A stretch of DNA of 64,000 nt, from the NCBI GenBank assembly GCA_000432835.1, contig FR890375.1:26412-90411 (forward strand), given 5' to 3'. The DNA is from Clostridium sp. CAG:417. Its GTDB lineage: Bacteria; Bacillota_I; Bacilli_A; RF39; UBA660. Position 1 is the first letter of the stretch. Each line of letters begins with the position of its first letter. Below are positions 486 to 7,361 of the stretch, one piece after another. Below the pieces are notes generated by a model, which saw only the letters and a program-made list of their open reading frames with translations, was not told the DNA's origin and made no database searches. Position numbers and translations under genes: made by a program.

Positions 486-497
486 CCTTATGGAGCG
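486..497. repeat. attL-like direct repeat CCTTATGGAGCG, identical to 7350..7361; followed by a degenerate copy of the tRNA-Gly 3' region up to about 525
   Basis: Exact 12-mer found twice in the window. The second copy spans the CCA end of tRNA-Gly. Flanking bases show partial similarity to the tRNA T-arm (AGTTTCAAATTATCTTATCTATCGCTCCA vs GGTTCGATTCCCATCATCCGCTCCA). Confidence 0.6.
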
Positions 498-644
498 ATA
501 GATAAGATAATTTGAAACTATCACTATATAAGTTAATACAACTAACTTCTATAACAATATTACCATATTTTCGTAAAATTTTAAAGGAATTTAATAAAAT
601 TGATAAAAATAATGATATAATTATGTTTGAAAGGTAGTGAAATA

Positions 645-2591
645 ATGAGAACAAAGGAACAAGCTTGTACAGCATGGCGTGAAATGTGTAAGAATTGTAG
701 TAATCATGAAGAATTTTTTGCTGGTGTTTTTAGTGCTATATGGGAAAATACAATGCCTTATATCGAGTTATGTGATGAAATGTGTGATAAATTTAGTATT
801 GCTACACTTAGTAAAGATACTGTTGCTATACAAGAATTATATAAAACTGCGACTTTAAACGATTATCAAAAACAAAAAATAAAAAGTATGTTAAAAACAA
901 ATAATGAATTATTGCTAACTTTAAATCCTTATATTTTACAAGAAAAGTATGCTTTTTTAGAACCATACGTAAACGAATTAGCGTTAGATACAATTATTCA
1001 AGATAGATTATTAAGTCTTGATGATTACGAATTATACATAATAAAAAAAATAGTTGATTTATCATCAAGTTATGGTATAAATTCACATAGATTAATTGGT
1101 ACCATTATAGATCGTTTGGGTAGATCATCTATTCCAGGTAGAAATAATGAGAAATTTTTAGAAAAAATTAGTTCTTTATTTGATTTAATTAAAGAGTTTG
1201 AAAATCAGTATACTTTAAATGATGAAATAATCGGAAATATTGGATTTATAATCAAAACTGGAATTTTTCCAAAAAATGTTGAAGAACTTGAAGATTTTAC
1301 TGGTAAAATAAAAGGAATGCTATCTGAAGATATAAATACTAATAATGACATAAGTGATTTAAAAGATGACTTACTATATGCTTTATTTGGAATAGATTTA
1401 TCAGATGCTAAATTTTTCGTTAAAGCTTTTGATGTAGAAGGCTTATCACCTGAATTAGCATTAAATGAAGGTGTAATAGAACTCACAACTATAAAAATGA
1501 TATTAGGTTATGAAGATATTGATAAATTAAAGGAAGTTGCAACAACTTTAATAAATGGTACTGAATTTAAAATTAATTTATTTAATAATAGTTTGATTGA
1601 AGAAAATCTTTTATTACTTTATGCTAATGAATTTAATAAATGCAAGCCTAAATTTAATGAATCAAATATATTAACAACTATAGATGGTATTAATGTTTAC
1701 GATTCAGGAGATCAATTTTATTCAATTGTAAAAACTTTAGGTGCTTTCTCAGAAGATGGAAATGGACAAGCAAATTATTACGAAGAATGGAATAATGATA
1801 GGTATAGGAGTCATATAAACGCTGTAAGTTTAATAAGAAATGATAATTTAGCATTTGCAGAGCAAGATGGAAAACTACATATAAAATTAGGTTTTTATGA
1901 TTTTGATGAAACAATGTTTTTAGGTGGTGGCAATAAAGATATTAATAGTACCCCAGATAGTAGAAATATGGGTGCAAAAATATATTCTAAATTAAGCCTA
2001 CCTAGTAAATTCATAGATAGTACAAGAGAATGGCATAACGAATTAGACTTTGAAAGAAAAAGCACTGATCCACGAAACCCACATTTCAAAAAAAATCCAG
2101 ATTTTATTATTCTGGATCAAGAATGCGAAGATATTTCACAACTTAGTGTAGAAGAGCAAAAACAATTTGAAGAATATAGAAATAATACTATTAAAGCAGC
2201 AAAAGAATTTGGAAATCTTCCAATATTAGTAATAAATAGAGAAAGAATTGCACGAAATGAAAACAATTTAATTAGAAAAATGTTAGATGACTATAATGTT
2301 TCTCATGATATGGGATTACTAAAAAATATAATTATAAAATTTAATAATAATAGAAATGGTTGTAGAGGACCACAACATAAATATATTCGTGAAAAATACT
2401 TTTCTAATCAGTATTTTCAAGAGATACTTAATGAAATTGATAGTATCATACCAGAAAATCAAAAAGAATTCTTTTATGAATTTGTAAAAAATGAACATGA
2501 AAAGATGGCTGGTTGTTTTTATGATAATACAACAAAAGATATGCCTATTCAACCAAATGAATTATCTAAAAGAGGTGGTTTAAATGTCTAA
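645..2591 (+). CDS. hypothetical cargo protein (about 649 aa; track ORF starts at TTG 627), Cys-rich N-terminus, no recognisable domain
   Basis: Long uninterrupted ORF. ATG at 645 is preceded by AAGGTAG-type RBS. N-terminal Cys cluster (C-x6-C-x2-C ... C-x3-C). No catalytic motif recognised by eye. Confidence 0.55.
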   Translation: MRTKEQACTAWREMCKNCSNHEEFFAGVFSAIWENTMPYIELCDEMCDKFSIATLSKDTVAIQELYKTATLNDYQKQKIKSMLKTNNELLLTLNPYILQEKYAFLEPYVNELALDTIIQDRLLSLDDYELYIIKKIVDLSSSYGINSHRLIGTIIDRLGRSSIPGRNNEKFLEKISSLFDLIKEFENQYTLNDEIIGNIGFIIKTGIFPKNVEELEDFTGKIKGMLSEDINTNNDISDLKDDLLYALFGIDLSDAKFFVKAFDVEGLSPELALNEGVIELTTIKMILGYEDIDKLKEVATTLINGTEFKINLFNNSLIEENLLLLYANEFNKCKPKFNESNILTTIDGINVYDSGDQFYSIVKTLGAFSEDGNGQANYYEEWNNDRYRSHINAVSLIRNDNLAFAEQDGKLHIKLGFYDFDETMFLGGGNKDINSTPDSRNMGAKIYSKLSLPSKFIDSTREWHNELDFERKSTDPRNPHFKKNPDFIILDQECEDISQLSVEEQKQFEEYRNNTIKAAKEFGNLPILVINRERIARNENNLIRKMLDDYNVSHDMGLLKNIIIKFNNNRNGCRGPQHKYIREKYFSNQYFQEILNEIDSIIPENQKEFFYEFVKNEHEKMAGCFYDNTTKDMPIQPNELSKRGGLNV

Positions 2592-2657
2592 AAAAGAAAA
2601 TGATAAAAAAAAATTATATGAGTTGTGCTTAAAAATTATTTCAATATTAAAGAAATA

Positions 2658-2696
2658 AAAGACGATAGCTTACAATGATAAGCCATCGTCTTTTTC
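2658..2696. terminator. bidirectional hairpin between convergent genes (AGACGATaGC ... GCcATCGTCT followed by TTTTTC)
   Basis: Inverted repeat at 2658..2669 / 2681..2692 followed by a T-run. It overlaps the stop of the mob gene. Confidence 0.5.
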
Positions 2697-6025: not shown

Positions 6026-6261
6026 AAATATTCAACTCCTTTTCTACAAAAAAGAGGAGACAAAAGCATTAACAAGTAATACTCTTGACTCCTCTAAAAT
6101 AATTATTAGTTTTTATGTAATTAAAATAGTGCATAGTATCCCTCCAATAATAAAGACGATACTGCATGTCATTTATTGGTTTTATATAATACATTTTTAT
6201 TTTAGATTTGTCAAGATTTGTAAATTAATATGGTATAATAGCAAGTAAAGGATGTGATTAG

Positions 6262-6945
6262 ATGTCTAAAAAAGATGTTGCTATTACAAGTGCAAAGAGT
6301 GCTATATCATTAATACCTTGGGCTGGTGGGATTATAAATGAAGTGATTTCATATTATCAAGGAAAATATGTGGATTTACGTATTGAGAAATTAGAAAAAA
6401 TTCTAGGTGATGATAGAAAAGATATATTTGAAAAAAATATGAATAATTTAAATGAGCAAGAATATTTTTTGTCTAGAAAATTAATTAAATTTTACTTGTT
6501 GGAATCTGAACCAATAGTGTCTGAAACAGTTGTAAAATTTCTTGTTGATTATATTCTTTCAAATAAAAGAGATTCAATGAATTTAATAATATCTATGCTA
6601 TGTCAAATGGAATCATCTGATATAGAATTATTAAAAAAGATAAAACATAGTTTTACAAATTTAGATGCTGAATTAAAATGGGAAGAAATTTCTCCATATG
6701 AAGTAAATAATTCAGATGATAAAATAACAAAAATTAGTTTAAATCAACTAATATCAACAGATTTTTCAGACGATGGCAATATGAATTTAGAGTTTAACAT
6801 GATGGGAATTGCATTTATGAAACTCGATAGATTAAACATAATAAATACATATTTTCCAATTTATCCAGGTAATAACAATACTAGAAATATTATTTCTTTT
6901 ACAATAACTCCATTGGGTAAAAAAATAATAGAGTATATTGATTAA
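6262..6945 (+). CDS. hypothetical cargo protein (227 aa)
   Basis: ORF with extended -10 (TGgTATAAT at 6231..6239) and RBS AAAGGA 7 nt upstream of ATG. No domain recognised. Confidence 0.5.
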   Translation: MSKKDVAITSAKSAISLIPWAGGIINEVISYYQGKYVDLRIEKLEKILGDDRKDIFEKNMNNLNEQEYFLSRKLIKFYLLESEPIVSETVVKFLVDYILSNKRDSMNLIISMLCQMESSDIELLKKIKHSFTNLDAELKWEEISPYEVNNSDDKITKISLNQLISTDFSDDGNMNLEFNMMGIAFMKLDRLNIINTYFPIYPGNNNTRNIISFTITPLGKKIIEYID

Positions 6946-7217
6946 AAATTGGTTTTTAAATATTCTTCTAATTCCGATAGTTTTATTTTATTAGATAGGT
7001 TTTCAATAAATATCTCATTAGAATAATTAAAAGCAAGAAATGTTATATCATTAATTATTATTCTATGTGGTTCAACATAGGTTAAGTTAGTTCTATCAAT
7101 TTTTCTTATACTACCATTTATGATTTTTAGAGTAGTATTTGAAAACTCACATATTAGTTCTAACTTCTTTTTTAATGATTCTTCAATAACAACTTCTTGC
7201 TTAATAATATTTACCAT
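6942..7217 (-). CDS. hypothetical small protein (about 91 aa; island-borne paralog of 81..392)
   Basis: Track ORF 6942..7382 runs into tRNA-Gly, so the N-terminal 50 aa are spurious. Internal ATG at 7226 or 7217 (MVFMVNIIK...) has an AAAGGA RBS. Homology to the 81..392 product. Confidence 0.5.
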   Translation of the reverse strand: MVNIIKQEVVIEESLKKKLELICEFSNTTLKIINGSIRKIDRTNLTYVEPHRIIINDITFLAFNYSNEIFIENLSNKIKLSELEEYLKTNF

Positions 7218-7349
7218 AAATACCATCCTTTCTTTGTAGGATAGTCTTTGTATGACTTCCAAACTTTGCGCGTTGAAGCAGGTACACAAAAAAACTAACC
7301 CAAATTGAGTTAGTTGTATTAAAAAAGCTCGAAAAGTTCGAGCGTATTT

Positions 7350-7361
7350 CCTTATGGAGCG
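7350..7361. repeat. attR-like direct repeat CCTTATGGAGCG spanning the tRNA-Gly 3' end (CGCTCCA) plus 5 nt downstream
   Basis: Exact copy of 486..497. Confidence 0.6.

Follow-up and report, generated by a model that had tools for sequence, protein, structure and literature searches.

A repeat-bounded segment adjoins tRNA-Gly(UCC)

The stretch of DNA analysed here (the window) is 64 kb long and comes from Clostridium sp. CAG:417. Near its start, beside a tRNA-Gly(UCC) gene, lies a 6,864-bp segment that we call element W, which encodes a large serine recombinase (LSR) and a Mob_Pre-type relaxase (protein accessions of the locus, CDC61877-CDC61889). W is bounded by an exact 12-bp direct repeat, CCTTATGGAGCG, at 486-497 and 7350-7361; its length counts one core (486-7349 or 498-7361). 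A sequence-only reading of the window had pointed out this repeat, and our counts bear it out. These are the only two exact copies in the window, and with one mismatch tolerated there are still two, against a chance expectation of 0.08 and with two or more matches in 0 of 100 shuffles. ARAGORN and Rfam (71.7 bits) place the sole tRNA of the window, tRNA-Gly(tcc), at 7355-7428 on the minus strand, and this chromosomal gene is unchanged in strains with an empty site. The tRNA-proximal repeat copy (attL core, 7350-7361; CGCTCCATAAGG in tRNA orientation) consists of the final 7 nt of the tRNA (7355-7361, minus strand, CGCTCCA, encoded CCA included) and 5 nt downstream, so the earlier placement of this copy over the CCA end was correct. 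Read in the tRNA direction the repeat is CGCTCCA|TAAGG, that is, four acceptor and discriminator bases, the encoded CCA, and five downstream bases. The distal copy (486-497) is the attR core.

We found the same open reading frames (ORFs) between the repeats as the sequence-only reading had called. Next to the tRNA is the left end of W, the P' arm (7293-7349, minus strand, AAATACGCTCGAAC...), which has homologues in 57 related loci and in which a terminator scan found two intrinsic terminators, at 7327-7343 and 7293-7315, where transcription of tRNA-Gly now ends. The arm is followed by the gene for X' (6942-7217, minus strand), a conserved 91-aa LSR partner with a novel alpha+beta fold, by the LSR gene (4187-6025, minus strand, 612 aa), by a conserved block directly after the LSR stop codon (4136-4179, minus strand) and by the relaxase gene (2670-3995, minus strand, 441 aa). 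Two cargo genes lie on the plus strand, one for a 227-aa protein between X' and the LSR (6262-6945) and one for a 648-aa protein (645-2591). Neither cargo protein nor X' has a match in Pfam, PADLOC, NCBIfam or PHROGs, in keeping with the earlier description of genes without recognisable function. The right-end module (490-621, minus strand), made up of the P arm and ~100 nt more, is 84-96% conserved across elements with unrelated cargo. Beyond the attR core lies the B' arm of the target (424-485, minus strand), with a hairpin at 462-479 and a terminator at 424-450, which stands 3' of tRNA-Gly in empty sites. The terminator hairpin and its T-run were read by eye, the terminator scan having missed the G+C-poor stem. 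The gene at 81-392 (minus strand) encodes X103, a chromosomal homologue of X' (37% identical, E=1e-21).

The large serine recombinase is the only recombinase of W

The LSR matches the Pfam families Resolvase (PF00239, 1.4e-36) and Recombinase (PF07508, 9.8e-17) and an integrase PHROG (1e-114). Its catalytic Ser15 lies within YMRVSTEDQ, its zinc-ribbon motifs are CPKC284 and CEKC310, and residue 13, S15, D85, R86 and R89 are invariant in LSR alignment A2. It has both the catalytic domain and the Recombinase/zinc-ribbon region of an LSR, and the DUF4368 domain is absent. The relation to TnpX is distant (PDB 2mhc, E=1.4e-7 over 110 residues), and the W LSR scores far under the cut-offs of the nearest NCBIfam models, CcrB and XisF (for Ccr, 141 bits vs 900). 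The claim that the element is driven by its LSR gains support from two observations: this intact LSR is the only recombinase inside W, and the four other occupants of the site share with W just an LSR and an X-family gene. We infer that the LSR catalysed the insertion of W.

Insertion at a tRNA 3' end with a repeat of at least 10 bp is typical of tyrosine integrases, and tRNA genes are used by 44.5% of tyrosine-integrase islands vs 4.9% of serine-integrase islands (PMC7192596). W could on these grounds be a tyrosine-integrase tRNA island whose integrase lies elsewhere or has been lost, with the LSR as a resolvase or invertase passenger. We give this explanation next to no credence. The LSR has integrase-type Recombinase and zinc-ribbon domains, unlike small resolvases, LSR and tRNA are adjacent in 57 of 64 related loci, and their shared backbone is without a tyrosine recombinase. 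No Phage_integrase domain was found in any ORF of the element; Pfam detected no tyrosine recombinase or transposase domain among them, and Pfam and NCBIfam no type IV secretion system or coupling-protein domain. W does not fit the definition of a tyrosine-integrase tRNA island.

Empty and occupied sites differ exactly at the repeat

Exact-protein look-ups led to long human-gut metagenome contigs (1.0-1.3 Mb) from the same organism as the window. Among the matches listed for the Imm33 gene on the other side of the tRNA, 6 of 10 have an empty site, in which tRNA-Gly is followed by the hairpin, the terminator and gene 81-392; the sequence directly after the tRNA is TAAGATAAAATCGTCGCACC.... Between empty and occupied strains the flanks are ~99% identical; what the former lack is the 6,864-bp segment, with the break exactly at the core. 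W is an insertion polymorphism with exact junctions, and the empty sites that the sequence-only reading had named as the check on an insertion at tRNA-Gly exist in strains of the same species.

Presence and absence of W might also arise without the LSR, by homologous recombination or deletion between diverged duplications (core, hairpin-terminator, X/X'). The repeat does lie within a longer diverged duplication, in which a hairpin stands ahead of both X103 and X' and the two proteins keep 37% amino acid identity, and inter-element deletions do happen at this locus (the X103 chimera and the relic at L013 12480-12555, described below). DNA identity outside the 11-12-bp core, however, is too low for such exchange, a 7-bp core is the shared breakpoint of four unrelated element types, and the W end meets at least 15 unrelated sequences exactly past CGCTCCAT. 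We consider this route very improbable. The duplication also bears on the earlier caution that the 12-mer might belong to a longer repeat unrelated to the tRNA: a longer repeat exists, but it is the att region and is tRNA-related.

Five element types use the same tRNA end

The same tRNA-Gly end is used by at least four further element types, alone or in tandem. The L011-type carries a 640-aa LSR, Mob_Pre, MutH, a DNA methylase, DUF6414 and an AAA protein; the L016-type a 579-aa LSR; the L020/L008-type a 593-aa LSR and TnpV, with or without a NikA-like protein; and the T-type a 612-aa LSR, TnpV and a NikA-like protein. The LSRs of the five types, W included, show 27-54% mutual identity and their cargo differs, and the only genes common to all are the LSR gene and the X-family gene beside the tRNA. 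LSR elements have thus used this site repeatedly and independently. The repeats of the sister types are GCTCCAT or CGCTCCAT.

At least two different LSR elements stand in tandem at one tRNA in L001, L003, L008, L012 and L007, in the last of which the proximal element is decayed. Elements thus accrete in tandem at this site; GCTCCAT occurs at every boundary of these arrays, and W stands in both orders relative to other elements. The arrays fit a scheme in which every new element enters at the tRNA-proximal junction and only heterotypic arrays arise.

The cargo of the sister elements (L011 14878-19651; L012 13679-17392; L020 13359-14912) looks defence- or resistance-like: MutH with a DNA methylase, DUF6414 with an AAA ATPase, HNH with Hypoth_Ymh, HD with DUF6414, and a beta-lactamase with an acetyltransferase.

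The shared att core is 7 bp long

All element types share a core of 7 bp, GCTCCAT. Position 12 of the W repeat (window position 486) is A in empty sites and G in most W-type attR sites, with A in the attR of L114, and G-type arms stand next to the tRNA in L001 and L012. This mixture of A and G indicates a polymorphism of the host, which places the crossover to the left of position 12. The W repeat is 12 bp long only in hosts with G at this position and 11 bp against the common attB (..TAAGA..). The long repeat noted by the sequence-only reading therefore holds for this genome, whereas it is 11 bp against the common attB and only the 7-bp core is general. We conclude that the 11-12-bp repeat of W mostly reflects the likeness of the P' arm and the resident arm through shared ancestry and no requirement of the tyrosine-integrase kind.

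The bases after the left repeat copy had been taken for a decayed tRNA T-arm. Rfam at E<=1 returned the real tRNA alone, and we discarded this idea. The P arm (498-522, minus strand) forms a conserved T-arm-like hairpin, GATAG-TTTCAAA-TTATC, which is an attP half-site; compared with its place in the tRNA, a GTTCG-like motif, read from the sequence, is shifted 4 nt outward in P arms. LSRs act on short att sites that have imperfect dyad symmetry about a 2-bp crossover and in which the half-sites of attP exceed those of attB in length. In the L020-type attP, 16 of 23 positions form an imperfect palindrome about CGC|TCCA, in line with what an LSR would use; the attP of L016 has no dyad symmetry. 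Dyad symmetry as proof of the crossover centre was dropped: a CT centre is clear in L020, ambiguous in W and absent in L016. The crossover most probably lies within GCTCCAT, at the C72-U73 step or in the CCA. The attP junction sequence of W would read ...ATTATCTTATCTATCGCTCCATAAGGAAATACGCTC... and the restored attB ...CATCATCCGCTCCATAAG[A/G]TAAAATCG....

The empty site carries the remains of an earlier element

X103 and X' are paralogues, and each lies downstream of a repeat copy with a hairpin/terminator. Canonical X' proteins have 90 aa and end in ...FYIGNLKKKIPLSELSEYIARH. X103, by alignment A3 and the translations, consists of X' residues 1-72 joined to the C-terminal ~31 residues of the T-type NikA-like protein (...LGYFEDERAI..KIEYLK..KKYIP..DKDN); the matching T-type regions are L012 10579-10851 and 13480-13660. 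This chimeric make-up marks X103 as the deletion scar of a T-type element from which the LSR, TnpV and the N-terminal region of NikA have gone. X103 is intact and near-identical in all strains seen. We also considered that a T-type LSR module had been inserted inside gene X, and discarded this because T-type elements hold an intact canonical 90-aa X' and X103 is a chimera.

In empty sites the tRNA is followed by the B' arm, which is almost the same sequence as the P' arm in intact T-type elements (L001, L012); we conclude that the B' arm is a fossil P' arm. The terminator at 424-450 and gene 81-392 are remains of an earlier insertion that is fixed in all strains seen. The sequence-only reading had regarded a relic terminator at 423-452 as the original terminator of tRNA-Gly; it does stand directly 3' of the tRNA in empty sites, but it is itself a remnant of an older element. 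Another relic, at L013 12480-12555, lies ~2 kb beyond the tRNA and outside the left edge of the window. It is a decayed P-core-P' junction with the core TGCTCGAT, both arms of which resemble L020-type P and P' arms, and it suggests that an old, now fixed element left behind the segment X103-EamA-acetyltransferase-55aa.

The relaxase and a candidate oriT

The relaxase matches Mob_Pre (PF01076) at 45.4 bits against a cut-off of 25.5. MOBV relaxases have a motif I of the form HxxR and a motif III of the form HxDE...PHxH, and the W protein carries HNLR at residue 50 and HFDEHSPHLH at residue 167. Its identity to Mob proteins of small mobilizable plasmids is 31-36% in a collection of annotated plasmids, where only distant relaxase relatives were found. 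The protein is a distant member of MobV. The earlier MobV assignment stands as far as the Pfam family and the motifs go, while the protein falls below the cut-off of the NCBIfam MobV equivalog.

The intergenic region at 3996-4186 is rich in inverted repeats and has a strong predicted single-stranded DNA fold (z=-4.9). Within it, the block at 4136-4179 (ACGTGACATGTTTTGTTTACGATAGTAAAT GAAAGTGGCGATAG) is our candidate for the oriT core. In the wider family described below the block has the form aCGTGGCACGTTTTGTTTACGAAGTAAAT-GAAAGTGGCGATAG directly 3' of the LSR stop codon, and the oriT-like motif occurs in 44 of 64 loci with Mob vs 3 of 16 loci without it (Fisher p=4e-4). Near the block, ATAGTGTTAAA resembles the pMV158 nick region, TAGTGTG/TTA, and serves as a lead only. 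The inverted-repeat-rich candidate oriT of the sequence-only reading thus gained a conserved, Mob-associated block in a strongly folding region, and stays a candidate. W has the features of an integrative mobilizable element (IME): its own integrase, att repeats, insertion polymorphism and a relaxase, with no mating-pore genes and, as to oriT, a candidate.

W in different contexts and in a second host

A 33-mer of the W right end and core was found in 26 metagenome contigs, joined to at least 15 different downstream sequences. All of these diverge immediately past CGCTCCAT and comprise host arms, P' arms of other types (arrays) and simple terminators. W is also present in a second genus, in a host whose Tex is only 66% identical and whose flanking genes differ. 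The W backbone stands there at the tRNA-Gly(tcc) of that host, and over 4.8 kb 94.4% of its nucleotides are the same; X' is unchanged, Mob keeps 85% amino acid identity, and the cargo has been exchanged. This amounts to horizontal transfer of W to the same target.

Taken together, these results make it highly probable that W is an IME inserted by its own LSR at the 3' end of tRNA-Gly(UCC). The LSR would insert W by conservative site-specific recombination between the attP of a circular element and the 3' end of the chromosomal tRNA gene. The crossover would fall inside the last tRNA bases (GCTCCAT); the tRNA stays intact and W brings new terminators. The conserved backbone runs from the P' arm through X', the LSR, the oriT-like block, the MobV relaxase and variable cargo to the right-end module, which contains the P arm. 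Once excised, W would, on the model of Tn4451 and other MobV elements, form a circle that its relaxase nicks at the block 3' of the LSR gene and that a conjugative system in the same cell transfers.

Several observations weigh against this reading. The zinc ribbon of the LSR (PF13408) reaches 25.0 bits, 0.3 bits short of the cut-off of 25.3, and the relaxase scores 22.9 bits on the NCBIfam MobV equivalog, for which the cut-off is 100. In the W attP 10-11 of 23 positions are symmetric, a marginal dyad for which CG and CT tie as the centre. No W-W junction was seen among the arrays (L001, L003, L007, L008, L012). The B' arm of the target resembles a P'-type arm, and to our knowledge canonical LSRs do not recombine attP with attL-like sites. 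A 36-mer across the attP junction had 0 matches in JGI metagenome contigs and IMG/VR, where the P arm and core 33-mer, as a control, gave the 26 contigs above. The LSR of the second-host copy (L136 10193-12031) is frameshifted into 75 + 535 aa. Because assemblies rarely capture circles, the missing junction is weak evidence; excision of W is accordingly something we only infer.

The last two points are also those expected if W was inserted by its LSR in the past and is now an immobile, vertically inherited island whose polymorphism reflects old gain and loss, and the ten long contigs with the exact LSR all have the same flanks. The split LSR probably immobilises the L136 copy, so some copies are decaying. 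The window copy, however, has an undamaged LSR, relaxase and X', and a good promoter-like site precedes its LSR. W also stands next to different array neighbours and on different host haplotypes of the downstream terminator, and the host of the 94% identical backbone belongs to another genus. We regard an immobile island as unlikely and favour a mobilizable W.

Two further kinds of W-like sequence were seen. At L111 2211-2356 the W P arm and core are tandemly doubled (TTCAAATTATCTTATCTATCGCTCCAT twice) ahead of an L020-type P' arm, which may be the scar of a lost element. At tRNA-Cys and in a tRNA-Gly(gcc) operon, L101, L113 and L123 hold ~1.3-kb miniatures with W-like ends, in which X' is accompanied by part of the mob 3' end and by the right-end module and an LSR is lacking; these are possible non-autonomous elements mobilizable in trans.

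Related elements occupy many tRNA genes

An LSR profile search of the GTDB species representatives gave 80 loci from uncultured gut Bacilli and Clostridia (Firmicutes), with LSRs 49-67% identical to that of W. Among the 64 loci with enough upstream DNA, 57 have a tRNA on the same strand that ends 514-1177 nt upstream of the LSR; the background density of tRNAs is ~0.026 per kb. An X-family gene lies between tRNA and LSR in 75 of the 80 loci, and Mob_Pre just after the LSR in 67. Whatever the tRNA, a conserved arm, CCA-NNNNSG-AATCTGYTCGAAC, begins directly after the CCA (57/57 loci), and the distal repeat, where it falls inside the locus, begins 5-8 nt before the tRNA end. The targets comprise 16 tRNA genes with distinct anticodons. 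Many of them stand last in a tRNA operon, an argument for a chromosomal origin, which is proven for W alone.

Closely related LSRs occur at different tRNAs. Among pairs at least 90% identical (loci L021-L100), 21 of 28 stand at different tRNA genes; examples are Thr-tgt and Leu-tag, with LSRs 97.4% identical, and Thr-ggt and Gly-tcc (96.7%). The tRNAs of switched pairs have only 3-9 terminal bases in common. No description of a tRNA|X'-LSR-MobV family or of tRNA-switching LSRs was found in the literature searched, which does not prove that none exists.

We see about equal grounds for and against a model in which the LSRs of this clade recognise a generic tRNA 3' end and not one gene, with X' as an accessory or directionality factor and arrays formed through tRNA::P' junctions. 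What is recognised may be GTTCRA in the T-arm, of which GTTCGAAC in the P' arm is the mirror, together with the NCCA end and a short core that matches. It stands on an even footing with its opposite that a T-arm GTTCRA at a fixed distance from NCCA is read, so that an attP with a 5-7-bp matching core lands at many tRNAs. We are similarly divided over whether each tRNA::P' junction can be used by the next heterotypic element, with fossils becoming later attB sites. X' is a candidate for the accessory or directionality factor because its position upstream of the LSR is fixed; no recombination directionality factor has been proposed for serine-recombinase IMEs (PMC5704250).

Other features of W and its flanks

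A promoter-like site upstream of the LSR (6186-6214, minus strand, TTGACA-17-TATTAT, 11/12 matches) was found by promoter scan. Between the terminators and the X' start codon we found no clear X' promoter. Upstream of X' a hairpin (7222-7245, minus strand) pairs the Shine-Dalgarno region (AGGA) with an upstream TCCT. An extended -10-like sequence, TATGGTAATAT (557-567, minus strand), is conserved in the right-end module and points outward over the att core. It was read by eye from the alignment, the promoter scan of the region having given only other, 9/12 promoter-like sites, and may be an outward promoter. In the integrated and the circular form alike, terminators beyond the core separate it from X', so that TATGGTAATAT would yield only a short transcript ending near the att site.

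Other DNA takes the place of the 227-aa cargo gene in variant L114. The 648-aa cargo protein has only 57 homologous clusters, and in L136 other cargo stands in its place. Its AlphaFold2 model (predicted local distance difference test score, pLDDT, 89.6) has a helical N-terminal half, an alpha/beta centre and a helical C-terminal part, and gave no informative PDB match. On the other side of the tRNA, 7496-9015 encodes a 112-aa immunity-like protein with an Imm33 domain and a 377-aa multi-pass membrane protein that has a duplication-like internal pattern; all strains have both.

Significance and comparison with known systems

LSRs are prized as highly site-specific, unidirectional integrases, and their natural targets have been catalogued almost solely among protein-coding genes. 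In the LSR survey of Durrant et al., only protein-coding targets were analysed and tRNA is unmentioned (PMC10083194). The W locus is a clean natural experiment, with empty, single and multiple occupancy of one site, and it opens a large unannotated family. If LSRs of this clade do recognise a generic tRNA end, small mobilizable elements would spread in uncultured gut Firmicutes without a specific target gene. They would also offer a natural example of LSR specificity split between a conserved half-site and a swappable core, and would supply candidate enzymes, with X' as a candidate cofactor, for engineering bacteria not yet site-specifically transformable.

SCCmec and related SCC elements are likewise driven by LSRs (CcrAB, CcrC) and insert at the extreme 3' end of rlmH (orfX), which stays functional; they form tandem composite arrays with a repeat at every boundary and have no relaxase. 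W resembles them in its LSR, in a 3'-end target that is kept functional and in arrays with boundary repeats, and differs in its tRNA target, its relaxase and an LSR lineage distinct from the Ccr enzymes.

Tn4451 and Tn4453 of C. perfringens and Clostridioides difficile (TnpX, TnpV, TnpZ) are like W in being ~6-7 kb long, with an LSR, a Mob/Pre (MobV) relaxase adjoined by an oriT-like site, no conjugation genes and a Firmicute host (PMC5704250). The sister T and L020 types at the W site carry TnpV beside the LSR, as these transposons do. Tn4451, however, shows low insertion specificity, with a 2-bp GA core, and requires no partner (PMC5704250), whereas W is specific for a tRNA 3' end, has an 11-12-bp core and X', and is without TnpV/TnpY and DUF4368. 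W is not a member of the Tn4451/Tn4453 family as defined, being site-specific, without TnpV and only weakly matched to TnpX. The serine IMEs of streptococci and other Firmicutes share with W a single LSR, often a MobV relaxase, site-specificity, short repeats and accretion (Guedon 2017, PMC5704250; Coluzzi 2017, PMC5357655). Those described disrupt protein-coding genes (rumA, ICE genes; PMC5704250), whereas W leaves the tRNA end intact.

The use of a tRNA gene by an LSR, which the sequence-only reading had called less usual, is indeed rare, but precedents exist. Serine integrases at tRNA genes were called unreported and in need of proof in a computational survey that found them in 14 of 297 islands (PMC7192596). 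Mycobacterium AICEs at tRNA-Leu (in silico) and phiRSM at tRNA-Ser integrate into a tRNA gene by serine recombinases, as W does, and were called rare (Ghinet 2011, PMC3218068). AICEs are conjugative elements of Actinobacteria and phiRSM is a filamentous phage with a small resolvase-type enzyme, and W is neither. Each of these uses one fixed tRNA and has no MobV, no X' and no evidence of tRNA switching, unlike the W family. IMEs with an LSR and MobV are already known, and we consider the behaviour of this family toward tRNA genes the more interesting result.

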